A model generated the notes under the pieces. That model had not been told where the DNA came from. It ran no database searches and saw nothing but the letters and a program-made list of their open reading frames with translations. A stretch of DNA of 64,000 nt from an uncultured Pseudomonadales bacterium (GTDB taxonomy: Bacteria > Patescibacteriota > Microgenomatia > UBA1400 > PJMF01): positions 186-64,185 of the forward strand of contig CAYWDM010000003.1 in the NCBI GenBank assembly GCA_964457085.1. Direction: 5' to 3'. Made by a program: the position numbers and the translations under genes. Below are positions 12,834 to 64,000 of this stretch, one piece after another (within the stretch, counting starts at the first letter, position 1; every line of letters starts with the position of its first letter).

Positions 12834-13202
12834 TTACCCAAGGACGTTGCCAGCTGCTTTCAGAATACCTACATTGCTTGGTGTAACAAATTTAATCTGG
12901 TCAGCAGTATATTCTCGAGTATATCCAACTCCACCAGGCCAAGTTAACACATTTGCACCTGGATCGGTATCATGCGAACCTGCTTGGGGAAATTCAGCGA
13001 TAATTATACCTTTATCAACTGAAACAACTCTAAAAATTTCCCATATAGTTTTGCCAGATTCACCAACCCAATGGCCACAGTCACCTGGTTGCCAATCATG
13101 GGCTTCTTCTTCTTTCCTGTTCACTTTTTCTTCTACCATAAACCCTTTCTTGTTATTTTGATTAGTATACATCAAGATAATATTGAAATGATGTGCTCCC
13201 AC
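12834..13202 (-). CDS. hypothetical protein
   Basis: 122-aa ORF with GTG start lying inside the duplicated tRNA-Arg 3' segment. An internal ATG (MVEEK, ~13139) is an alternative start. No recognisable domain. Confidence 0.3.
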   Translation of the reverse strand: MGAHHFNIILMYTNQNNKKGFMVEEKVNRKEEEAHDWQPGDCGHWVGESGKTIWEIFRVVSVDKGIIIAEFPQAGSHDTDPGANVLTWPGGVGYTREYTADQIKFVTPSNVGILKAAGNVLG

Positions 13203-13208
13203 CGGGAA

Positions 13209-13347
13209 GCTCCCTTTCAGGGATTAGCCACGGGCTTCGTAGGTTGTGTATCAGTGAAATACCCGCCTCCCTTGGCGGCAGGACCAAATGTCCATTTCCT
13301 ACGATGAGGTCAAATCATTAAAAACATCTTTAGGAAAAGATATTTTT
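13209..13347 (-). mobile_element. ~139-bp mini-element 3' of tRNA-Arg, flanked by a 22-bp direct repeat of the tRNA 3' end (13187-13208 and 13348-13369)
   Basis: Direct repeat aat[g/a]atgtgctcccaccgggaa, 21/22 identical. Insert starts with an A/T-run hairpin and holds a core related to GCCCGTGGC / cccttggcgg shared with other copies. Confidence 0.45.
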
Positions 13348-13354
13348 AATAATG

Positions 13355-13426
13355 TGCTCCCACCGGGAATCGGACCTGGATTTAAGGTTTAGGAAACCTC
13401 CGTTCTATCCGTTGAACTATGGGAGC
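13355..13426 (-). tRNA. tRNA-Arg (anticodon CCT)
   Basis: Hand-folded cloverleaf: acceptor GCTCCCA/TGGGAGC, D-arm GTTC..GAAC, anticodon loop TTCCTAA, T-arm CCAGG-TCCGATT-CCCGG; 72 nt. Confidence 0.8.
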
Positions 13427-13615: not shown

Positions 13616-14047
13616 TCAGGATTCCTCTGATCGTCTAACGAGTTCATCCATCAATGCATGCTCATTGTAGGATGCCCCTTTTTCCTCAATTTTTCCAAAA
13701 TATTTATATCCTGGAGTGGCTATCGTTGGGCGTCGTGAATAATCATGCGGGTAACTTCTCCAAGTATTTTCGTCAACCTCTTGACTTAGGCGAAAATGAC
13801 CATGGTAACTATTGCTGGAGCTTGTGAATTGTTTAATTAATTGTAGTAGTCCAACCCAATCCTGTGAGGCACCAAGTTGACTAAGTTGTTGTTTTATTCT
13901 GTCGTCAAAAACGGCTATGGGTTCTTTAGAGTTTAATTCGGTTGTGATGCCCATTGGTTGCAGGATATACTGCAACCTGTTCCAGATATATTCTGTTTTA
14001 AGAGTCTTTGCCCATTCTTTCATTTCCGCTTCATTTTGTTCAGACAT
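13616..14047 (-). CDS. hypothetical protein
   Basis: 143-aa ORF between two tRNA genes; no recognisable motif. Confidence 0.4.
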   Translation of the reverse strand: MSEQNEAEMKEWAKTLKTEYIWNRLQYILQPMGITTELNSKEPIAVFDDRIKQQLSQLGASQDWVGLLQLIKQFTSSSNSYHGHFRLSQEVDENTWRSYPHDYSRRPTIATPGYKYFGKIEEKGASYNEHALMDELVRRSEES

Positions 14048-14235
14048 ATACGAATTGATGCTTTTGTTGAGGCAATTCTTGCACGATCCGAGTGTTTCGT
14101 TTAGGTGTGTGGGAAATCTAGGAGTATTTGTTGAGTGAGTTTTACTTACTTAGCGGGCACGGGCGTCCGCAACTTGAATATATTTATAAAAGCACCTGCG
14201 GCACTTTTCTAAATATATGTCGGAGATGGCGGACT

Positions 14236-14349
14236 TACCTATTCATGCTCATGATTTTGACAAGCTGAATGATTTCGCTTGATTGGGCACAAGTCGTCCT
14301 TTTCTCATCACGTAGCTTCTAAAAAACCACTTTGTGATTTTTTAGAAGC
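14236..14349 (-). mobile_element. ~114-bp mini-element 3' of tRNA-Pro, flanked by a 22-bp perfect direct repeat tatatgtcggagatggcggact (14214-14235 and 14350-14371)
   Basis: Insert starts (tRNA-proximal end) with a 12-bp A/T-run hairpin gcttctaaaaaa/ttttttagaagc. It contains core tttcgcttgattgggcac, and ends with tcatgagcatga. It is homologous to the Trp-associated copy. Confidence 0.5.
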
Positions 14350-14355
14350 TATATG

Positions 14356-14429
14356 TCGGAGATGGCGGACTCGAACCGCCGACCTTACGATCCCGAACCG
14401 TACGCTCTAGCCATCTGAGCTAATCTCCG
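14356..14429 (-). tRNA. tRNA-Pro (anticodon CGG)
   Basis: Hand-folded: acceptor CGGAGAT/ATCTCCG, D-arm GCTC-AGATGGCTA-GAGC, anticodon loop TTCGGGA, T-arm GGCGG-TTCGAGT-CCGCC. Confidence 0.8.
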
Positions 14430-27108: not shown

Positions 27109-27385
27109 CTTTGCACTGAAAAAAATTTACAACAACCAAATATTGACATATTCATATGTTATAGGATAATACTACATATGTGTTGAAAGTAGCTGCCAAG
27201 TGGTAGCCAGTCAGTTTCCCTTCAATAATTGTGGGAATCGTGCCTGGCAGCTTGGGGTTGCGACTCCGGGGTTTCGTCTCCGGTTTCAACATATCTTCAT
27301 AACTGCATTCCGGAGGGCCCTTTGGAATGCAGTTTATTTTTTTGTATGCACATTTTTTATCGAACTACTCGATTTGACCTGAACC

Positions 27386-27417
27386 AAAAACCCCGCCTGG
27401 TTTCCCAGGACGGGGTT
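27386..27417 (-). terminator. rho-independent terminator after rplL
   Basis: Minus strand aaccccgtcctgggaaaccaggcggggttttt. Near-identical copy at 43046-43083. Confidence 0.75.
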
Positions 27418-35596: not shown

Positions 35597-35701
35597 TGGC
35601 GGTACACCCCAAGAGTGTTTGCAGGGTGAATTTCATTCACTCAGCGGGCACGGGCTTTGTAACTCCTGCTTGCTCAATAACTGAGACCACCCTTGGCGGT
35701 A
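35597..35701 (+). repeat. solo copy of the GGGCACGGGC-core mini-element, not at a tRNA, bracketed by 8-bp direct repeat tggcggta
   Basis: ttcactcagcgggcacgggctttgta...cccttggcgg matches the Arg-associated element (cacgggctt[ct]gta...cccttggcgg) and the solo copy at 14133-14170. Confidence 0.4.
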
Positions 35702-43038: not shown

Positions 43039-43045
43039 GGAGAAC

Positions 43046-43083
43046 CAAAAACCCCGCCTGGTTTCCCAGAGCGGGGTTTTTAT
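43046..43083 (-). terminator. rho-independent terminator after rplA
   Basis: aaaaaccccgcctggtttcccagagcggggttttt, near-identical to the rplL terminator. Confidence 0.75.
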
Positions 43084-45188: not shown

Positions 45189-45413
45189 TTAGCGAGAAAT
45201 TAAACTACTGATTAGTTTTTGAAAGATAAAATCAAGTCCACCAATATAAAGAGCTACAACTGCACTCACACCAATCACTAAAAGGGTGAGGTTGGTAGTT
45301 TGTTGCTTGGTTGGCCAACTCACTTTCTTGAGTTCAGCTACCACATCTTTCATATACTCTGTTAGTTGTCGCATGTGAGAGTGGATTGTATCAAATTCCT
45401 GGTGGTTGTACAC
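45189..45413 (-). CDS. secE: preprotein translocase subunit SecE
   Basis: 74 aa; single C-terminal TM with SecE-like VSWPTKQQTTNLTLLVIGVSAVVALYIG; upstream of nusG. Confidence 0.7.
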   Translation of the reverse strand: MYNHQEFDTIHSHMRQLTEYMKDVVAELKKVSWPTKQQTTNLTLLVIGVSAVVALYIGGLDFIFQKLISSLISR

Positions 45414-47499
45414 CGCGCTGCTTGAGACGCTCCATCATTGAGTTTGCAGATTCATTTTTTGGTGTCTGCATGTTGAGGTTTTGTTTCAAGTGCTCAAGAC
45501 GTCTTTGCTCTGATTCTAGATCACTCGTTTTTTGGGCAGTATTTGGATTTATGTAGCGTGCGTCTTTGCGGCGACTGTCACCAAAGAGCATTGGGAGCAC
45601 TAATAATGCTACAACTATTAAGAGTAGGCCACCAAGAATGAATGGCAATTTAGTGAACAAGCTGGTGATCCAGGCTGGTTTTTGTGTTGTCTTATTATCA
45701 GTTCCGCCAGTTGAATCAACTTTTTTCGTAGTACTGGTAGTTGCAGCTGGACTAACTGAAGGCTTGCTGTCGATAACACCAGAAGTGGTTGATCCAATTG
45801 CTAATTCTGGATCCTCACCAATTTCAGTAGCACTGCAAATGAAGCTGGCTAAGTTGGCTGGTAATCTACAGCGATTTGAATAGCAGCGTAGTCCCAATGC
45901 ACAATCGCTGTTGCCGGCACAGGTTTCATTACACTGCATTTCAGCAGCCTCTGTAGTGAGTTCTGAGCCACCTTTTTCGTTCGAATAAGACTCAATTACA
46001 CGGTACACAGATTTCTTCGCTGGTGCCTTGCAACTAGTATCTGGTTGGTTTTTGGGGTTGCGGCAACGATTCCAGTAACAACTGAGTCCAGCAGTGCACT
46101 CTCTTGAGTCTGCACAGTACTCATTACAACTGCGGTTTAGACCTTTGTCTGGAGCTAAAACACATGAGGTGCTATCAACATTGCCAGCACGGCGACATTG
46201 GTTGTTGGAACAAGTGAGGTTTGGAGCACATTCAGTATTAGAACTGCATGACTCATTACATTGTTTGTAGCTCACTCCACCCACACCTGCACATTTGGGG
46301 ATAAAGAAGCGCACCACACTACTATGTTTACCATTCCATAGCCTGAAATAGTAATTTACTTCAGGATAGAAAGAGTAGAGAGTTTTTTTGCCATCACTAT
46401 AGGTTCGGAAGTTGGTACTATCTGTTACTAAGTACGAGTCACCCAGAGTACTTGTACCACCAGAAACTTCTTTATTTGCGAAATCACGGAAGTCACTGTA
46501 GATACTGACATCGATTGCAGTAACATTTGGGTAACGGTTTTTGTTCCAGAGAACGTATGTTGAGTTTCCGATTGTGCGGTCATACCAACATGCTTCGTAG
46601 GTATACAAGCTGAAGTCTGGGTCATAACCAACTGTTTCACAGGCTTGAGTCAACTCTTGCATAGCTTCAGTTTGGTACCAAGTACAGTTGGCTGGAGTGG
46701 TCGCCACGGTGCGAGTTTTCCAACCATTGGTACATGCACCCCAATCTGAGTAGGTGTAAGCACATTGTTGGAGACAACTCTGCTCAAGTTGAGTGGCATC
46801 TGGGGCAGCGCAAGTTGACGGGTTTGCGGTATAAGTGCGGATTTGTTTACCGTTTTGGCAGCTTGACCAAGCCCCAAACGAATAACTGCAGACATCTTGG
46901 ATCACATTCAATACTACGTTTTCTACGGTGTTTAGTACGTCTTGATTGGCGGTTTGATACCGAGTAACAATTGTTTTACTTTGGTCGAAATCTAGGCGGT
47001 ATGCATTAGTGGAAGCAGGAATCAAGCTGAGGGCCATCAAAGACTCGTTCCCAGAGGTGCTGAATGGGTCACCGACGACATTTGGTAACAGCATGAATTG
47101 ATATTGGTATCCATTTGTAGTGGCCTTGCCATTCCAATCGGCTAAACGTAATTTCGGATTAGTGACTCGGTAGGAAAAACCCGATCCAAATTGTTGGTTC
47201 TCTCCAGTAACTGTCAAATCAAGGGTTAATTGGACGGCACTTACTTGAGTATTATTGGTGTTGATGTCAATCTGAATCGGAGATTCTGTGCCAAGTTTGA
47301 GCGTAGTAGTGGGACTAGTTATGTGCACCACACCATTGGTTACGCTGGCTTGACCTCGCAAATCGGTGTCTTCGCGTAATTGTTTTTGTAACAGCAAGGA
47401 ACTAACAGCTAAAAAGCCAAAAAGTGTTAATATCACCACCCATAAAACAGTGGAAATGGGCTTGGTAAGTAGTGGTTGAGTGCCGAGTGTGCGCTTCAT
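45391..47499 (-). CDS. large secreted/anchored Cys-rich repeat protein with N-terminal cohesin-like module; paralog of 48450-50483
   Basis: N-terminal TM, cohesin-like segment (LGTESPIQIDINTNNTQVSAVQLTLDL). Central region collinear with the paralog (YTYEACWYDRTIGNSTYVLWNKNRYPNV...KCAGVGGVSYKQCNESC...). Four ~25-aa 5/6-Cys modules ending C..NRCR. Start overlaps secE by 23 nt. Confidence 0.55.
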   Translation of the reverse strand: MKRTLGTQPLLTKPISTVLWVVILTLFGFLAVSSLLLQKQLREDTDLRGQASVTNGVVHITSPTTTLKLGTESPIQIDINTNNTQVSAVQLTLDLTVTGENQQFGSGFSYRVTNPKLRLADWNGKATTNGYQYQFMLLPNVVGDPFSTSGNESLMALSLIPASTNAYRLDFDQSKTIVTRYQTANQDVLNTVENVVLNVIQDVCSYSFGAWSSCQNGKQIRTYTANPSTCAAPDATQLEQSCLQQCAYTYSDWGACTNGWKTRTVATTPANCTWYQTEAMQELTQACETVGYDPDFSLYTYEACWYDRTIGNSTYVLWNKNRYPNVTAIDVSIYSDFRDFANKEVSGGTSTLGDSYLVTDSTNFRTYSDGKKTLYSFYPEVNYYFRLWNGKHSSVVRFFIPKCAGVGGVSYKQCNESCSSNTECAPNLTCSNNQCRRAGNVDSTSCVLAPDKGLNRSCNEYCADSRECTAGLSCYWNRCRNPKNQPDTSCKAPAKKSVYRVIESYSNEKGGSELTTEAAEMQCNETCAGNSDCALGLRCYSNRCRLPANLASFICSATEIGEDPELAIGSTTSGVIDSKPSVSPAATTSTTKKVDSTGGTDNKTTQKPAWITSLFTKLPFILGGLLLIVVALLVLPMLFGDSRRKDARYINPNTAQKTSDLESEQRRLEHLKQNLNMQTPKNESANSMMERLKQRGVQPPGI

Positions 47500-47505
47500 A
47501 TACAG

Positions 47506-48366
47506 TTATCTAGTCCATTCTTTAACCATGACTGAGTAATCAAAAATGTCGATCTTTTTATCGTGATTGATGTCATACATCAAATCGGCTGGTGAGCTAT
47601 CAAAGAAGTGCATGCTGAGCAGGTCAAAATCACTTTGGTTTACTAAACTATCTCCGTTTAAGTCTGAATCTGCACAAAAGACATAGTTTGGTTGTAGTTT
47701 AATTTCACAGGCTGGATCCTCAAACATACATGCAGATTTCCGGATACAACCAATTTTCTGTTTCTCGCAACGTTGGCCATTTACTGATACACCGCAGCTG
47801 TATCCGATTGGTGGTGCAATTAAGATGCAAGAACGTCCAGCATCGACTGGTAAACATTCTGTGCCACACCAATCACATTTCAGAGGTCCTTGAGTTGGAG
47901 TGGGGGTGGCTGTTGGCTGTGGTGCTTTACAATCTTGAGAGCAATTGCAGTAGTTTTCACCAAGACCACAAACGCCATCGCCACATTTGGTACAAACAAT
48001 TGCACCTTCGGCACGCATACATTGACCAGTAGTATCTGGCTTGTCTCCAGTTATTTGAGTTAACCCTGAGCAACATTGTGGTTTAGTTCCATCAATAATG
48101 CTTGCTTTACCACCTTCGTATATACAGGGCGGTGGATATGAGTCTACAGCTGCAGTTAGGCTATTTTCTGCGACTACATTTGTACTGGCAGCTCGTCGTA
48201 AATCTTGAGAGCGTGAGACCATTGCCAAGCTAACAACGACTCCAACAGAAAGTATTGTAAGAAATAGTAGCGAAACAACAATTGTTATTGGCAGTTTTTT
48301 AAGATCAGCAGCAGTTTTTTTTGAATCAACTGAGATCGTTTGACCGGTAATTTCAGGCATCACCAT
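47506..48366 (-). CDS. membrane-anchored Cys-rich protein with C-terminal dockerin-like repeats
   Basis: N-terminal TM; Cys-rich body (KCGDGVCGLGENYCNCSQDC...). C-terminal duplicated Ca-binding-loop segments DLNGDSLVNQSDFDLL / DINHDKKIDIFDYSVM. Confidence 0.6.
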   Translation of the reverse strand: MVMPEITGQTISVDSKKTAADLKKLPITIVVSLLFLTILSVGVVVSLAMVSRSQDLRRAASTNVVAENSLTAAVDSYPPPCIYEGGKASIIDGTKPQCCSGLTQITGDKPDTTGQCMRAEGAIVCTKCGDGVCGLGENYCNCSQDCKAPQPTATPTPTQGPLKCDWCGTECLPVDAGRSCILIAPPIGYSCGVSVNGQRCEKQKIGCIRKSACMFEDPACEIKLQPNYVFCADSDLNGDSLVNQSDFDLLSMHFFDSSPADLMYDINHDKKIDIFDYSVMVKEWTR

Positions 48367-48449
48367 CTAGCATAGAATCAAGTCAGGGTACAAGTCAATA
48401 GAACACAACAGCCCAAATGATAGATGGGCTGTTGTGTTCTTAAATGCGA

Positions 48450-50483
48450 TTATTTTTGCTCTGGAGTAGAACTCGAAATTGGTCTGCCATAACTCTGACC
48501 TCCAGTTGCAGGAGTTGTGGGAGTTGCGGGACCATTGTTTAGACCAGCAGCTGGTCGAGTTGCAGTTGGCTGTACTGGTTGTGCTGGTTGCATTGGTGTC
48601 GGATTTGCAATCAATGACTGACCAGACTTTGCCTGCAGGGCAGATAGAATCCGTGGTACCCCAAGCACTGCTGCCACAGCAATGATAATAATCCCAAGGA
48701 TTAATGGCACAGCTGCGAATGGTGAACTGGCTTTTTTGGCTGGAGCGGGGGTAGCCTCAGTTTTGTCAGGGAAATCATTAACCAATTTCTTCACAGTGGT
48801 TGGCTTAGCACTTGGTTTGGCACTAACTTTAGGTGAAGGTGACACGTTTAACACCACATTTGCTTTTGGTGTTGGTGAAACGGTACTGGTCACCACTATG
48901 GTTGGACTGACTTTTGCAATTGGCTTAACTGTTGGTCTGCGAGTTGGTCTGACTGTGTCCCCATTATCGTCAACATAGCCACCAGTACCAGTGTCATCAG
49001 TACTAGATGTAGGTGGTTGGCAACGAGTATTGGCTGGGTTTGTCAGCAGACGACATTGATCGTTGTAACAGCGGAGATTGGCTGGGCAGTCGCTATTGGT
49101 GCTACAACTCTTATTACAGTCAACTACAACACCTGGCTTCACTATGGTTCTGCAAGAGACATCCTCAAGACTTTGAGAGTTGCGGCAGCGGTTGTACCAG
49201 CAAGTAAGTCCATTTGAACACTCGCTACTGTCTGCACAATATTTGTTGCAACTGGTTGTGGTGGTAGTGACACTTGAGCAGCTCTGGTCGTCGGTTTTTT
49301 GAGGTGCACGGCAGCGGTTGTACCAACAGGTGAGACCGTCGGAGCATTCGCTGTTGTCACTACAGTATTCATTACAACTGCGTTTAATACCTTTGTCTGG
49401 AGGCAACACACAACTAGTGTTGTCTTGATTGTTGATACGGCGACACTTACTGTTGTAACAATATAAGTTGGTAGCACATTCATCGTTGTTGCTACATGCC
49501 TCATTACATTGTTTGTAGCTAACTCCGCCAACTCCAGAGCATTTAGTTACTTTGTAGGTGGTGATTGCACTGTGTCGATTATCGTAGAACAGTCGCAAAT
49601 AATAAGTAATTTCTGGATCAAAGGTAAATGCACCTTTACTGCTGTTGTACCAGCGGAAATTGGTGCCATCAGTCATGGCGAAGCCATTACTGAGTGGTTT
49701 TGGATTAGTCACATCCTTATTTGCATACTCACTAAAGTCGGCTTTAGTGCTAATGTCTACAGATTTGATGTTGGGATAACGGGTGTTATTCCAGACGATG
49801 TATGTAGATGAACCATTTGAGCTATAGTTCAAACAAGCTTCGTAACTATAGACAAAGAATTCTGCGTTAGTGGGGACAAGAGTGGGTGTTGGAATGATTG
49901 CCACATCAGCAATTTTTACATCCAAATCTGTATGTAAACTAACTGCATCAGTGGATTCTCCCTGAGCACCAACAGTAGTATCTTCTTGAGAAAAGGTGAC
50001 TCTAGTTGAGTCCGATTTTTGTAGTGCTTTGAATGTTGCTGTCGCTAAGACTCCTTGGCCGGTTAAATAGGGTGGGTTGGCATTTGTTGGGACAATTACA
50101 GAGTATGAGGCAATGCCAGCAGCTCCGTTGACAGAGTTAATTAGTTCTTGTGCTTGAGAGGCAAACGCACCCTTTTCAATCTTTATTAACTCTAGATAAC
50201 TTTTGTCATATCGCAAGCCAACGTCCACAGCCTTAACTAAATTGGCATTGGTGTTAATATCAACTTTTACGGTAAAAATTTGTCCTGGGCCAACTGTTGC
50301 GTTTGATGTGGTTAGTCCTAATGTGGTGGCTGGCGCAGCTTTGCTACCCAAATCTTGATTCCCACCAAGTAACGCTATGCCTGCAGCCAATCCAACCATG
50401 ACAATAACCAGCAAAAACCCGACGATTGGCACTAACAGTGGTAGATGGGTGTGGTGAAAGCTGTGTGATTTAAGTTTGGGCAT
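48450..50483 (-). CDS. large secreted/anchored protein with cohesin domain, Cys-rich repeat modules and Pro/Thr-rich C-terminal region
   Basis: Cohesin signature GPGQIFTVKVDINTNANLVKAVDVGLRYDKSYLELIKIEKGAF...GVLATATFKAL (cf. CipA cohesin PGDTV.IPV....I..CDF.L.YDPNVLEI.EIEPG). Four C-x3-C-x5-C...NRCR modules. TPTP-rich tail with C-terminal TM. Confidence 0.65.
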   Translation of the reverse strand: MPKLKSHSFHHTHLPLLVPIVGFLLVIVMVGLAAGIALLGGNQDLGSKAAPATTLGLTTSNATVGPGQIFTVKVDINTNANLVKAVDVGLRYDKSYLELIKIEKGAFASQAQELINSVNGAAGIASYSVIVPTNANPPYLTGQGVLATATFKALQKSDSTRVTFSQEDTTVGAQGESTDAVSLHTDLDVKIADVAIIPTPTLVPTNAEFFVYSYEACLNYSSNGSSTYIVWNNTRYPNIKSVDISTKADFSEYANKDVTNPKPLSNGFAMTDGTNFRWYNSSKGAFTFDPEITYYLRLFYDNRHSAITTYKVTKCSGVGGVSYKQCNEACSNNDECATNLYCYNSKCRRINNQDNTSCVLPPDKGIKRSCNEYCSDNSECSDGLTCWYNRCRAPQKTDDQSCSSVTTTTTSCNKYCADSSECSNGLTCWYNRCRNSQSLEDVSCRTIVKPGVVVDCNKSCSTNSDCPANLRCYNDQCRLLTNPANTRCQPPTSSTDDTGTGGYVDDNGDTVRPTRRPTVKPIAKVSPTIVVTSTVSPTPKANVVLNVSPSPKVSAKPSAKPTTVKKLVNDFPDKTEATPAPAKKASSPFAAVPLILGIIIIAVAAVLGVPRILSALQAKSGQSLIANPTPMQPAQPVQPTATRPAAGLNNGPATPTTPATGGQSYGRPISSSTPEQK

Positions 50484-50491
50484 ATATACTT

Positions 50492-51412
50492 TTATGTTCC
50501 TATAAGTTGAGTGATGATTGCGTAGTCAATTGCATTGATTTTGCCATCATGATTGAGATCCGCTTCTGGCAAAATTGAAACTGGACGTAAATATGCAAAC
50601 ACTAACAAGGCGACATCTTGGCTGTCGACAGCACCATCGTGATTAAGGTCGCCTGTTTTATACCCAATTGGGGTAGTGGGGGTAGGACTGGCAACTCCAG
50701 AGATGGTTGGGGTGACAGTTGGGGCATTGGGACATGCTGTCATATTTGTTGACCATGTGCCGTTTACAGCTGGACAGCAATACAGACGATTGCCGCAAGA
50801 CTCGGCACGACCTACAGCATTACAGGTACTGTCAGTCGAAGTACCGTCAGATTCTGGTGGGTGACAGTTTCGCAATACGCCATCTGTGCCTGGACATTCT
50901 TCTACACAGGGGATTGGTATTGTGGGTGTTGGTGTGCCAGCATTGGGAGTGGGTGTTGGTGTCGAAGTCGGTGCGGGTGTCGGAGTTGGTGTCTTGGTGG
51001 GAGTGGGACTTGCAACATTAGGAGTAGGAGTTGGCGTCTTGGATGGTGCAGGTGTTGGAGTGGCACAAGCAGTCATTGCGGTGGTCCATGCACCACCAGC
51101 GGAGGGACAACAGTAACTCTTGCCACCGCATGGTTCAACTCTTCCTTTAACGTTACAGGTACTATCTGCTGAGCTGCCATCTGGTTCTGGTGGAGTACAG
51201 TTTCGCAAAACATTATCTTTGCCAGGGCATTCTTCTTTACAGCCGCCAGCTGCGAGATTGTTAGTGTTAAATCCAGCTGCATCCCTGCGTGGATCTTGGT
51301 TTTGTTGCACGAGTACGACTGCGGCGGGAATAGCCACAGCCATGAATACTAATCCAAGCACAATACGGAGTTGGCTTGTATTTGGCTGTTGCTTAGGGTG
51401 TTTAGAACTCAT
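50492..51412 (-). CDS. secreted Cys-rich protein with internal tandem duplication, PT linkers and C-terminal dockerin
   Basis: Two ~48-aa copies (ECPGKDNVLRNCTPPEPDGSSADSTCNVKGRVEPCG / ECPGTDGVLRNCHPPESDGTSTDSTCNAVGRAESCG), TPTPTP linkers. C-terminal dockerin repeats GDLNHDGAVDSQDVALL / ADLNHDGKINAIDYAII. Confidence 0.6.
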   Translation of the reverse strand: MSSKHPKQQPNTSQLRIVLGLVFMAVAIPAAVVLVQQNQDPRRDAAGFNTNNLAAGGCKEECPGKDNVLRNCTPPEPDGSSADSTCNVKGRVEPCGGKSYCCPSAGGAWTTAMTACATPTPAPSKTPTPTPNVASPTPTKTPTPTPAPTSTPTPTPNAGTPTPTIPIPCVEECPGTDGVLRNCHPPESDGTSTDSTCNAVGRAESCGNRLYCCPAVNGTWSTNMTACPNAPTVTPTISGVASPTPTTPIGYKTGDLNHDGAVDSQDVALLVFAYLRPVSILPEADLNHDGKINAIDYAIITQLIGT

Positions 51413-51542
51413 AAAACAAGCGAAAATATTCGCTAATTCATTGAATCATTATCGGCGGTGTTTATCAACTAACAAGAATGTCGTCCTGATGATTCAGTAT
51501 CAAATAATTGGGTCACTTACGTAGTGGACAATTGATAGTCAA

Positions 51543-53618
51543 TTAGGTTCCAATCAAATCAAGCAGTTTCGCGTAGTCGATCGCGTTGATTCGATTATCG
51601 GAGTTAAGATCGGCTTTTGGTTTGGCAGATGCTGCCTGGCCATATACTGTGATCATCATTTGTACATCTTGTTGGTTAACTATATTGTCTTGATTCAAGT
51701 CACCCAATTTATTAGTGGTTACAGTTGGCACAGTAGTATTGGTTGGCAATGGGGCGGTAGTACTGGTGATGATGGGAGTAACGCTTGGTGTAATGGCTGG
51801 ATTTCTTGTTGGAGTTGGTGAAGGTATTCTGGTTGGTGTTGGGGTAACAATACGAGTTGGGGTTGGTGTGGCTGCAGGGACAGTTGGCGTTGGTGTTCTG
51901 GTTGGCGTAGGGGTGCGTGTGGCTGTCGGTGTGGGAGTGGCTGTTGCCTGTGGTGTGATGGCAGTGCAGTTTGGCCCAACGGTGTTTGAACCATCATTGC
52001 AGTCTGGAATTGCATGTGCTGCACAGGAAGCTGGACAGCCTGTTGCTGGTTTGGTGTTGTCAGTACCCCAGAAACAGTAGCTGTCGTTGTCGCGGTCACT
52101 ACAGGTGATCGCAGCCTTGCTGGCTGGTGGAATAATGTTTTTGCTATAGAGAACTGCTGGGTCACTGGCAGCGACATAAATACCCGCCATGGTTTCTATA
52201 CCTGGGTCACTGGTGATGGTTTTGGCCACAATTTGGTTGTATGCAGTGAGTACATTAGATGTGGCTCCTGGAATAGTGCCTTGCATCACATAGCGGAAAT
52301 AGCCGCCCTCACCGAAAGTGGTGTTCCAGCTGTTTTTTATGATCCAATATTCAAGTCCAGTTGCATTGTCTTTGCCCCAGCCAACAATAGAGATTACATG
52401 CAAACCCTGGTATGGAGCAGTGACTGTTTTGGCGTAAATACCGCTTTGGTAATAATACAAATCTTCAAAGACAGCAATACTTGCTGTGACTGGGCCATGT
52501 TCAATGATTGCACGCTTAATATTTTGGGCAGTGGCATACGTGTCTAAAATATAGTTTGTTTGATCTTTCCAGACGACTGCAACCGCTTCTTTATCTGATT
52601 TATAGAGTGAATCAGCGGTCGACTGTCCACATCTGGGATTTGGACATGCACAGCTGGCAGTTGAGCGATCACATGCCTTGTAGCTGTTGCAGGACTCAGG
52701 GATGATCCCTGAGTTTTTTGCATAGATAAAATAGTCACTCGAAAATCCACCAGTGGCACAAATATTGTTGTAAGCTGTGGCGGTGTTACAAACGATCGCA
52801 TCTTGTTCAGAAAAATCTAAATTGAGTCCAGGTTGGTTAAGGTGGGAGCCGACGTTAGCCTCTAAAGTTGCAGTGCTCCCAAAAACGGTACAAGAACCAC
52901 AATTTGCTTGATCTTTTACAGAGGATACAAAGTTGCCGCCGTGAATTTGTCGCCAGTCATAGTTTGCAGGAAGAGTAACTCCCTGATCAAGCTCCGCACT
53001 AAGGCCATTGCTGCTACCCAAAATACTTGTATTTGCTGAGTAGGTTGTGGTGACATTTGCTGCTGGTTTGCCGGATGACTTCAACTCATTGAGGTTTGCA
53101 ATATTTTGCAGTTGAAATGGCTTGGCGTAGTTTTCCTCTTTGAGACGCTTTGCGGCTACGGGACTATATGAGGAGACCTTCCAGGTTTTTTCAACACTAT
53201 TTTTCCCTGGGGGTGGCACAGCTAGAGCAGCATTCTCAAATTGAGTAATTTTATTGGAGTGAGCAATGATTTGGGTCTGATTTAGGTTAAGACCTGCTTG
53301 ATTAGATTGTTGTTGAATTTGCAGTGTTTTTGCATCAAGACTGTAGTTACCTCCAGAAGCTTGTTGTCGTAAATCTTGGCCAGTTGCGTTCAGTGCAAGT
53401 GCAGTAATGACGCCTACTACTAGTAAGCCTAATAAACCAATCGCTCCAAAAAATTTAAGTTTTTTTTGAGGGTTATGGTGTGGTTGGAATGAGTCTGTGG
53501 CAGGGGGTTGGGTGGTAACAACATGGACATCTGCAGAAACAGGTAAAACTACAGGACTCGGCAAGATATCTGCTAAGTTGTTGTGATTCTGTGGTGATTG
53601 TTGAGAACTGCCAAGCAT
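51543..53618 (-). CDS. membrane-anchored papain-family (C1A) cysteine protease with Pro/Thr linker and C-terminal dockerin
   Basis: Catalytic signatures: Gln/Cys (VKDQANCGSCTVFGS), His (HVISIVGWGKD), Asn-Ser-Trp (WIIKNSWNTTFGEGGYFRY). Linker TPTPTATRTPTPT. Dockerin GDLNQDNIVNQQDVQMM / ADLNSDNRINAIDYAKL. Confidence 0.8.
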   Translation of the reverse strand: MLGSSQQSPQNHNNLADILPSPVVLPVSADVHVVTTQPPATDSFQPHHNPQKKLKFFGAIGLLGLLVVGVITALALNATGQDLRQQASGGNYSLDAKTLQIQQQSNQAGLNLNQTQIIAHSNKITQFENAALAVPPPGKNSVEKTWKVSSYSPVAAKRLKEENYAKPFQLQNIANLNELKSSGKPAANVTTTYSANTSILGSSNGLSAELDQGVTLPANYDWRQIHGGNFVSSVKDQANCGSCTVFGSTATLEANVGSHLNQPGLNLDFSEQDAIVCNTATAYNNICATGGFSSDYFIYAKNSGIIPESCNSYKACDRSTASCACPNPRCGQSTADSLYKSDKEAVAVVWKDQTNYILDTYATAQNIKRAIIEHGPVTASIAVFEDLYYYQSGIYAKTVTAPYQGLHVISIVGWGKDNATGLEYWIIKNSWNTTFGEGGYFRYVMQGTIPGATSNVLTAYNQIVAKTITSDPGIETMAGIYVAASDPAVLYSKNIIPPASKAAITCSDRDNDSYCFWGTDNTKPATGCPASCAAHAIPDCNDGSNTVGPNCTAITPQATATPTPTATRTPTPTRTPTPTVPAATPTPTRIVTPTPTRIPSPTPTRNPAITPSVTPIITSTTAPLPTNTTVPTVTTNKLGDLNQDNIVNQQDVQMMITVYGQAASAKPKADLNSDNRINAIDYAKLLDLIGT

Positions 53619-61860: not shown

Positions 61861-61988
61861 GTGGGAACGATTGTCTATTTAATTCTTTGCAGCTTTGGCT
61901 AACTCGTTTCTGGCTGACATCTCGAGAGTGATACGGTACAATTACCAACACTGACTTGTTGAGGATTTTTGTCAGTGCACTTTAACTT

Positions 61989-62059
61989 AGGGCTATTATG
62001 TAATGGTAGCATTGAGGTCTCCAAAACCTTCCGTCAAGGTTCGAATCCTTGTAGCCCTG
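61989..62059 (+). tRNA. tRNA-Trp (anticodon CCA)
   Basis: Acceptor AGGGCTA/TAGCCCT, D-arm ATGT-AATGGTA-GCAT, anticodon stem GAGGT/ACCTT loop CTCCAAA, T-arm CAAGG-TTCGAAT-CCTTG. Confidence 0.8.
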
Positions 62060-62061
62060 CA

Positions 62062-62186
62062 CTTATAAAAAAACGAGCAACAGCTCGGATTTTTTATAAG
62101 TATGAGAGACGAGGATGCCCGTGCCCAATCAAGCGAAAACATCCAGGAAAACATCCAGTTAGTAAACTCATGAGCATGATGGGGTA
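62062..62186 (+). mobile_element. ~125-bp mini-element 3' of tRNA-Trp, flanked by 18-bp direct repeat aatccttgtagccctgca (62044-62061 and 62187-62204)
   Basis: Starts with A/T-run hairpin aaaaaaacgagc-aaca-gctcggattttttt (doubles as tRNA terminator). Core gcccgtgcccaatcaagcgaaa, end motif ctcatgagcatga; homologous to the Pro-associated copy. Confidence 0.5.
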
Positions 62187-62241
62187 AATCCTTGTAGCCC
62201 TGCAGAAATAACAAACCAGCTGTGATAAGAATTTAATTCTT

Positions 62242-62460
62242 ATGATTGAATCAAGATTACTTCACGCTCAAACTATGTTTGAGTTGAGTCTAGAATGCGG
62301 TGAAGATTTAGTTAAAATTAAGACCGCATTTGATGGTCTAAAATTACGTGAGAAACAAGAATCTTTTTTGAAATTTTTTACCGATGACCAGATTATTAAA
62401 TCTGGCATATTTGCCAGTATGTCAGATTTAACAACCGCCTTTCCTAATTTAAGGTACTAA
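62242..62460 (+). CDS. hypothetical small protein
   Basis: 72-aa ORF; weak evidence. Confidence 0.25.
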   Translation: MIESRLLHAQTMFELSLECGEDLVKIKTAFDGLKLREKQESFLKFFTDDQIIKSGIFASMSDLTTAFPNLRY

Positions 62461-63673: not shown

Positions 63674-64000
63674 ATAAGTTCCCACACCCTTCACTAGTGC
63701 CTGCAGATATAAAAAACGAGCATTTAGTTCGTTTTTTAATACCTGAGCTTTGTGAAAAATATATCAGCTATTTTTTTATTGATTGCTCTCTTCTCGACCA
63801 AATCTTGCTTCCAGCGAACCCAATAAATCTCATGACTCTTATTACTCGAGGATCTTCAGTTGAACTCTGACCTTTCACTGAAAGCATGATTTTTTCCTCA
63901 AACTCACCTTTTGTACTAGATGACAATACAAGTAAATTAATCATACTGAGTGTTTGTGCCGTAACTTCACTGCTTGGCATTCCTGCTAGTTCAGAAATTT

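Follow-up and report, generated by a model that had tools for sequence, protein, structure and literature searches.

What occupies the short stretches of DNA that separate three tRNA genes of an uncultured bacterium from exact copies of their own 3′ ends? The question is raised by tRNA-Trp, tRNA-Pro and tRNA-Arg on a 64,000-nucleotide stretch of contig CAYWDM010000003.1 (assembly GCA_964457085.1, positions 186 to 64,185), the whole of which is referred to below as the window. The proteins encoded nearby point to Patescibacteria/Candidatus Pacebacteria, and the window is matched by Logan contigs of SRR12261223-25. The inserts behind tRNA-Trp and tRNA-Pro proved to be homologous over their entire length and collinear. 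In our judgement the chances are evenly balanced that the inserts are integrase-less miniature integrative elements, little more than a bare phage-type attachment site (attP), put into tRNA 3′ ends by a recombinase acting in trans.

Three tRNA genes are followed by exact copies of their 3′ ends

Calling of tRNA genes with ARAGORN and Rfam RF00005 yielded six genes in the window, all of them (6/6) above the Rfam gathering score. Three of these, still intact with Rfam scores of 56-61 bits, are followed by a second copy of their 3′ end, so that a proximal repeat within the gene (R1) and a distal repeat (R2) enclose an insert:

61989-62060, plus strand: intact tRNA-Trp(CCA), called by ARAGORN and by Rfam RF00005 at 56.4 bits
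62044-62061, plus strand: Trp R1, attL-like core, AATCCTTGTAGCCCTGCA, tRNA nucleotides 58-73 plus 2 trailer nucleotides
62062-62186: Trp insert, 125 bp, between R1 and R2
62187-62204, plus strand: Trp R2, attR-like core, 18-mer, exact copy of R1
14355-14429, minus strand: intact tRNA-Pro(CGG), called by ARAGORN and Rfam
14350-14371, minus strand: Pro R1, exact 22-mer AGTCCGCCATCTCCGACATATA, tRNA nucleotides 58-73 plus 6 trailer nucleotides
14236-14349, minus strand: Pro insert, 114 bp
14214-14235, minus strand: Pro R2, exact 22-mer
13354-13426, minus strand: intact tRNA-Arg(CCT), called by ARAGORN and Rfam
13352-13369, minus strand: Arg R1, exact 18-mer TTCCCGGTGGGAGCACAT, tRNA nucleotides 59-73 plus 3 trailer nucleotides
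13209-13351, minus strand: Arg insert, 143 bp
13191-13208, minus strand: Arg R2, exact 18-mer

An original prediction, made from the sequence of the window, had described a 125-bp Trp insert bounded by an 18-bp direct repeat of the tRNA end, with repeat coordinates that proved to be off by one base at most. Exactly two copies of the 18-mer AATCCTTGTAGCCCTGCA are present in the window, and allowing 3 mismatches adds no further site (~0.05 expected). Each of the three repeats starts in the T-loop, at nucleotide 58 (Trp and Pro) or 59 (Arg), and runs through the T-stem, acceptor stem and discriminator into 2, 6 or 3 nucleotides of genomic trailer, respectively. These trailer bases are CA (Trp), CATATA (Pro) and CAT (Arg), with CCA in none of them; since the repeats hold genomic trailer and lack CCA, they were duplicated at the DNA level and not from a mature tRNA, and a retro-type origin was rejected on this ground. 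The repeats had been presented as target duplications, which is the wrong concept: they are identity blocks of the att type, by which the tRNA gene is restored, and not target-site duplications made by a transposase.

The three inserts differ little in size (114-143 bp) and have the same layout, with a terminator-like bidirectional hairpin immediately 3′ of each tRNA. No 3′-end copy is present at the three other tRNAs of the window (Thr-GGT, Tyr and Thr-TGT). Logan assemblies made independently from two sequencing runs cross the structures at 100% identity (contigs L001, L003 and L004), and the structures are therefore not assembly artefacts. Ahead of tRNA-Trp lies a promoter-like CTGACA-17-TACAAT at 61914-61942.

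The Trp and Pro inserts are homologous from end to end

Both inserts were aligned in tRNA orientation, and the local alignment score was compared with that of 2000 dinucleotide shuffles. The full inserts scored 56 against 15.6 ± 2.4 in the shuffles (z = 17), none of which (0/2000) reached 56, so that the collinearity claimed earlier extends from end to end. A likeness confined to the hairpin had been named in advance as the outcome that would tell against kinship; after removal of the hairpin (the first ~40 nt), the score was still 42 against 14.5 ± 2.5 (z = 11), again with 0/2000 shuffles reaching it. Once one unit of a 12-bp tandem duplication is deleted from the Trp insert, the two measure 113 nt (Trp) and 114 nt (Pro), and in the alignment without this duplication 91 of the 120 columns are identical, which gives 85% identity over ungapped columns. 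The order of blocks is common to both: hairpin, TGAGA..GGA, an 18-mer, AAA(N1-2)CAT repeats, a palindrome, GGTAA and finally the tRNA-specific repeat. The parts are placed as follows:

62062-62100, no strand assigned: A-run/T-run hairpin resembling a bidirectional intrinsic terminator (outer arms 62061-62072/62090-62101, inner stem 62074-62087)
62101-62120, plus strand: weakly conserved spacer, with TGAGA..GGA common to the Pro copy in the alignments
62121-62138, plus strand: conserved core 18-mer GTGCCCAATCAAGCGAAA, identical in the Pro copy
62135-62146 and 62147-62158, plus strand: 12-bp tandem duplication, two units of GAAAACATCCAG, with a single unit GAAATCATTCAG in the Pro copy
62168-62179, no strand assigned: palindrome TCATGAGCATGA (TCATG-AG-CATGA), identical in the Pro copy
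14315-14349, minus strand: Pro hairpin
14273-14290, minus strand: Pro copy of the 18-mer
14243-14254, minus strand: Pro copy of the palindrome

Inverted-repeat, fold and terminator scans all recovered the hairpin that had been anticipated at the start of both inserts. In the Trp copy its inverted repeat is 12 nt long and 100% complementary, the predicted fold agrees, and the terminator scan was positive on both strands. The outer arms differ between the two inserts by a compensated change (CTTATAAAAAA/TTTTTTATAAG versus CTTCTAAAAAA/TTTTTTAGAAG). The shared core sequence of the original prediction corresponds to the identical 18-mer GTGCCCAATCAAGCGAAA, which has just these 2 matches in the window even at 3 mismatches (0.1 expected), and the block noted ahead of the distal repeat corresponds to the palindrome, 8 nt before R2 in both inserts. 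Here both ends, on what would be the P side of an attachment site, read ..TCATGAGCATGA-NNN-GGTAA and then the core. The direct-repeat motif AAA(N1-2)CAT is present in two or three copies per insert (3 in Trp), and these short repeats make it a candidate arm-type site.

Neither insert encodes a protein: their reading frames reach just ~20 codons, and on both strands the frames differ relative to the 18-mer between Trp and Pro. Because no reading frame is conserved between the two, a coding function was rejected. Terminal inverted repeats are absent, the sole inverted repeats being the internal hairpin at the tRNA-proximal end. No promoter-like site within the inserts passed the promoter scan, and an outward promoter role was rejected accordingly. 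The Pro R2 is followed by a terminator-like hairpin at 14188-14208 that pairs on the tRNA strand only and is possibly the displaced native terminator; no equally clear terminator lies beyond the Trp or the Arg R2.

The 10-mer GCCCGTGCCC, inside the Trp insert at 62117-62126, occurs 3 times in 64 kb against ~0.1 expected. It is also contained in a 43-bp repeat (79% identity) composed of a hairpin and GCGGGCACGGGC, at 14122-14164 and 35613-35655. The copy at 14122-14164 lies ~50 nt past the distal Pro repeat and upstream of the open reading frame (ORF) ORF143.

The Arg insert shares the layout only

The Arg insert begins with a 16-bp A/T-flanked hairpin (13314-13353), continues for ~100 nt and ends in a 5-3-5 palindrome 2 nt ahead of the repeat:

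13211-13223, minus strand: Arg palindrome TCCCT-GAA-AGGGA

In the shuffle test, no significant sequence similarity was found between this insert and those of Trp (z ~2) or Pro (z ~0). Three related inserts had been proposed, and what holds for all three is the architecture together with the exact repeats of 18-22 bp, but not the homology in sequence.

Relatives carry the same tRNAs without duplicates

Contigs of related Pacebacteria showed the same tRNAs in an unoccupied state. Two of them (L024 and L025) have tRNA-Trp beside a DUF6938 protein (76-77% identity) with no 3′-end duplicate. Three others (L027, L028 and L029) have the gene order PEGA protein, tRNA-Pro, variable genes, tRNA-Arg, variable genes, NDK and M16 peptidase (65-74% identity), and none of these three contains a duplicate of the tRNA-Pro or tRNA-Arg 3′ end. 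These relatives are other species, with 65-77% identity in the neighbouring proteins, and not conspecific strains. They also lack the core 18-mer, and past the hairpin the Trp insert shares nothing with them.

The genes past the distal repeats (ORF72/ORF125, ORF143 and ORF122) have no counterpart in the examined relatives; the NCBI assembly GCA_041443045.1 contains the same ORF72. Because these genes are lineage-specific, the tRNA-proximal positions are hypervariable in the way known from hot spots of integration. Each R2 is followed, on the tRNA strand, by a small lineage-specific ORF (62242-62460, 14047-13616 and 13202-12834).

Within the species, the collections contain one strain only (L004 and L005 are identical), and no conspecific empty site was found in them. 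An apparent divergence at tRNA-Arg in contig L002 (3431-3825) was rejected as an assembly chimera, in which the 5′ part of tRNA-Arg is fused to a tRNA 3′ end, with its flank, from a high-GC organism. The SRR12261223 assembly breaks within the Trp hairpin (L023 stops at 62103 and L005 begins at 62074, with a 30-nt overlap), and the SRR12261225 assembly is continuous across it. The break indicates a graph fork at 62073 or 62104, a position unlike that of excision at the repeats. The fork points to an alternative path, either a variant or a second locus, that shares the 62074-62103 30-mer in the SRR12261223 sample.

A model of insertion in trans

Integration into a tRNA gene leaves a complete tRNA copy and a partial one (PMC9897764; 10.1101/2020.12.28.424599), and partial tRNA genes have been documented as attR sites (PMC9897764). 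The exact, tRNA-specific repeats in the same register, the intact tRNAs and the duplication-free relatives together constitute the signature of site-specific recombination between an attP and a tRNA gene. As the inserts contain no genes, the recombinase must come from elsewhere, and no movement could take place unaided. This recombinase is most likely of the tyrosine type; that the inserts arose by integration and that the enzyme was provided in trans are inferred, and present-day mobility is hypothetical.

In the model that we propose, the incoming DNA would have carried an attP whose core consisted of tRNA nucleotides 58/59-73 and a few trailer bases. Recombination of this attP with the tRNA gene (attB) would then have brought the element-borne 3′ end into the gene, leaving the tRNA intact, placing the strong bidirectional terminator hairpin of the P′ side directly after it and displacing the original tRNA 3′ end by 114-143 bp to become R2. 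The P′ arm would thus be the hairpin, and the P arm would comprise the ~65-85 bp with the AAA(N)CAT direct repeats and the 5-2-5 palindrome beside the core. Under this model, the insert plus one repeat (136-161 bp) would amount to little more than an attP. After excision, the Trp empty site is predicted to read tRNA-Trp...CCCTGCA joined directly to GAAATAACAAACC, and the corresponding circle junction should read ...GATGGGGTA, AATCCTTGTAGCCCTGCA and CTTATAAAAAAACG in that order.

Since the Trp and Pro inserts are collinear, of equal length and free of any non-homologous junction, they would descend from one miniature ancestor and not from two independent erosions, and such a common ancestor is the simplest history. 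Moreover, their distal repeats are perfect though the arms differ by ~15%, which suggests recent insertion of elements that had already diverged. The two combine ~85% identical arms with wholly different tRNA cores, and might have acquired these either through homologous exchange between the miniature element and a related full-length attP, or through a crossover restricted to the near-universal T-loop, after which R2 would have served to convert R1.

A broader proposal would be that ultra-small (~115-145 bp), non-coding, bare-attP elements, which carry the 3′ end of a tRNA and a terminator, exchange their cores while the arms are kept, are inserted in trans and, as one family, have colonised different tRNAs of a genome of the Candidate Phyla Radiation (CPR). 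This we put forward tentatively, as something that we would not expect to hold. Such elements possibly occupy or disable the attB sites of phages.

Searches for a recombinase, a parent and further copies

Among the ~40 ORFs of the window, a Pfam or NCBIfam scan revealed no integrase, recombinase or transposase; the inserts themselves, gene-less at 114-143 bp, lack the integrase that tRNA-integrated elements possess. When the three inserts were compared with the entire window by blastn, nothing appeared beyond the known loci, so that the homologous copies number two in 64 kb. A profile built from the Trp and Pro inserts likewise gave no additional copy with nhmmer in the 43 sequences compared. 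The conserved 18-mer had 5 hits in genome contigs and 12 in metagenome contigs, all of them due to chance: they were confined to 18-23 nt and lay in unrelated coding sequence with no tRNA near. When viral contigs were queried with the core 16-mer, the palindrome plus GGTAA and the three tRNA-end repeats (as attP cores), the result was chance hits or none, the single exact viral hit (L037) falling in high-GC phage coding sequence. No match to the Trp insert was found among phages and plasmids with blastn in a distant setting.

ORF143 (13616-14047), which lies past the Pro R2, was considered as a lead to a parent element and rejected, being an ORFan in a search of 5.8 billion proteins with only one homologue (P0242, 48% identity, from another metagenome) whose cassette is unrelated and carries no tRNA. 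This homologue sits between long direct and inverted repeats (L039 1231-1335/2163-2274 and 1406-1448/2116-2158), which gives it the look of a mobile cassette. Another protein, the 1158-aa P0243, repeats a 28-residue stretch of ORF143 ~20 times.

Several points weigh against insertion in trans as the origin of all three structures. No recombinase was found in the window, and no parent or further copy in the genome, metagenome, viral, phage and plasmid collections. The Arg insert appears to be tied to the other two by architecture only, and its sequence does not support membership of their family; the evidence for a family is one genome and two homologous copies. With just one strain available, neither an empty site from the same species nor a circular junction came to light. 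The different cores call for a hypothetical core-swapping step, and a circle of 130-145 bp would be a very small substrate for an arm-dependent integrase to excise or integrate. Finally, the Trp hairpin resembles the terminator of the unduplicated tRNA-Trp in L024 (35 versus 15.5 ± 2.4 in shuffles, z = 8.3), although a simple model would put the native trailer after R2 and not after R1. This may mean that some of the insert is old or close to native. This similarity may be convergent, which is conceivable because shuffling breaks palindromic A-run/T-run terminators and because a similar hairpin exists at 63711-63741; or else an older element may have left its left end behind in L024. Of the family of miniature integrative elements mobilised in trans that the original prediction had put forward, what stands is that the Trp and Pro inserts form one gene-less, att-flanked family; the mobilisation in trans found no backing in the form of an integrase or of further copies.

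Alternative origins

The inserts might instead be decay relics. Two or three ordinary tRNA-integrated elements of larger size, islands or prophages whose integrases were related, would then have eroded independently to the att-proximal arms between attL and attR, leaving remnants akin to cis-mobilizable elements (CIMEs) that were never mobile miniatures. CIMEs are defined as retaining attL and attR in the absence of integration and transfer genes (PMC5704250), a definition that attL/attR-like repeats without an integration gene match. Degenerate elements and stray partial tRNAs are moreover common beside tRNAs (10.1101/2020.12.28.424599; PMC9897764), and a preprint on tycheposons describes tRNA-proximal islands with both (10.1101/2020.12.28.424599). 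An Arg insert unrelated in sequence is also what a different parent would give. CPR genomes, finally, are small and prone to deletion. However, independent deletions would not share both breakpoints, as they would have to in the collinear Trp and Pro inserts with 113 versus 114 nt and no junction; nor does random decay suit three inserts that all measure 114-143 bp, or distal repeats that are non-functional and still perfect. We therefore regard decay as rather unlikely, though it is a serious contender.

An origin in the host itself, from a native tRNA trailer and a local, non-mobile duplication by slippage, repair or segmental events, is improbable. The Trp-Pro likeness would then reflect a shared host terminator or regulatory module, and both the resemblance of the Trp hairpin to the L024 terminator and the presence of A-run/CGAGC-stem/T-run hairpins like that of Trp elsewhere in the window (63711-63741) would fit. 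Such a module would, however, be expected in related genomes, and the relatives share nothing past the hairpin, having neither the core 18-mer nor the duplicates. Furthermore, local duplication would have to produce exact duplicates with the same T-loop start at three different tRNAs.

It is similarly doubtful, and we would be surprised to find, that the inserts encode a small structured RNA (a small regulatory RNA or a tRNA-like molecule) of which the distal tRNA fragment is a functional part. The core of the Arg insert (13237-13304, minus strand) does fold into a well-defined, 68-nt cloverleaf-like shape with a 7-bp closing stem and three hairpins (minimum free energy structure frequency 0.54, z = -2.1), and in the predicted folds the Trp and Pro distal repeats each pair with segments of the insert to which they belong. 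Neither ARAGORN nor Rfam called the Arg fold a tRNA, however, and no Rfam family matched any insert even at E<=10, with permissive scans of both loci giving sub-threshold noise only. Outside the hairpin the Trp and Pro folds were no better than those of shuffled sequences (z -1.6 and -1.0), and the two-sequence consensus fold contained no informative covariation there, its pairs being either invariant or based on two sequences only. The terminator hairpin moreover stands upstream of the region, and the inserts contain no promoter-like site. The covariance analysis suggested earlier thus lent no support to a conserved RNA structure of the core, and such a structure beyond the hairpin was rejected.

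Homing directed by RNA or a guide (the delocalised spacer of a CRISPR-associated transposon, CAST, an IS110 bridge RNA or a TnpB guide), or a retroelement with the tRNA fragment as its primer-binding site, can practically be dismissed and was rejected on anatomy and gene content: 18-22 nt is within the range of guides and retroviral primer-binding sites, but the copy is a direct repeat that borders on the tRNA end and continues into genomic trailer instead of CCA, Tn7-like ends and terminal inverted repeats are absent, no transposase, Cas protein or reverse transcriptase is encoded in the window or 7 kb beyond, and the inserts are too small for a guide RNA scaffold and had no Rfam hit.

Comparison with known systems

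CIMEs, described in Streptococcus and other Firmicutes, are the closest defined category, the inserts being both att-flanked and gene-less. They reside in the 3′ end of the gene that they target, which is often a tRNA, and are thought to depend on the recombinase of a related element (PMC5704250). CIMEs are, however, defined by a known parent, and their cis mobilisation after accretion has been demonstrated, whereas the inserts measure 114-143 bp, contain no genes and yielded no parent in our searches. Those described so far are, to our knowledge, decayed integrative conjugative or mobilizable elements of kilobase scale with some gene content. The inserts further differ in that their CPR host presumably lacks conjugation and in that two homologous copies carry different tRNA cores.

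With tRNA-targeting elements such as islands, prophages and tycheposons, the structures have in common the complete and partial tRNA repeats and the variable genes beside the tRNA, and like these they combine exact direct repeats (18, 22 and 18 bp) with intact tRNA genes. Those elements, however, bear an integrase, extend over ~4-120 kb and often have identity blocks of ~40 nt, and their remnants are irregular in size and content, unlike the collinear Trp and Pro units of ~115 bp. MITEs, or miniature inverted-repeat transposable elements, embody the same concept, being short, non-coding and served by an enzyme acting in trans, and are of a similar size class (PMC11602168). MITEs have terminal inverted repeats and short target-site duplications of fixed length made by DDE transposases at many sites, whereas the inserts have no such termini and their 18/22/18-bp repeats each equal the adjacent tRNA 3′ end and rebuild the target gene. 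The inserts work like an integrase-dependent analogue of MITEs but belong, as the classes are defined, neither to MITEs nor to autonomous tRNA-integrating elements.

A parallel for the combination of conserved arms and diverged cores may be found in phages. The attP of lambda and HK022 consists of a core shared with attB and of arms with directly repeated arm-type sites and sites for accessory proteins, and related phages of this type can keep their arm sites while changing core specificity, much as the Trp and Pro inserts may have done. The lambda attP nevertheless takes up ~240 bp of a 48-kb genome, and the inserts come with no identified integrase or arm-binding protein. Integrative mobile elements exploiting Xer (IMEXs) have no recombinase of their own either, integrating via the host Xer recombinases and being flanked by duplicated recombination sites. 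Their target is the chromosomal dif site and they are phage or island genomes, in contrast to units of ~120 bp in tRNA genes.

Implications

Should the inserts be propagating units, they would be smaller than any integrase-dependent element described, and site-specific recombination at tRNA genes would have its own class of non-autonomous miniatures. Arms of ~85% identity with different cores would then amount to a natural experiment on the re-targeting of att sites. They would also provide direct evidence of active site-specific integration in Patescibacteria/CPR, for which we know of few described integrated elements. Should the inserts be decay relics only, they would be an ordinary by-product of island turnover beside tRNAs. 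In practical terms, such structures yield stray partial tRNAs and terminators that affect tRNA annotation and the prediction of island boundaries.

Other features of the window

A 37-bp terminator-like sequence, GAACCAAAAACCCCGCCTGGTTTCCCAGGACGGGGTT, occurs twice with 95% identity, at 27381-27417 and 43042-43078, just past rplL and rplA. The two copies enclose ~15.6 kb between nusG-rplK-rplA and rplJ-rplL, which could be an insertion that splits the ribosomal protein cluster. Large proteins that look secreted are clustered at 45391-53618; the cluster features dockerin and cohesin domains, a protease of the papain family and internal repeats. Cohesins and dockerins are modules of the cellulosome type and unusual for a Patescibacteria genome.

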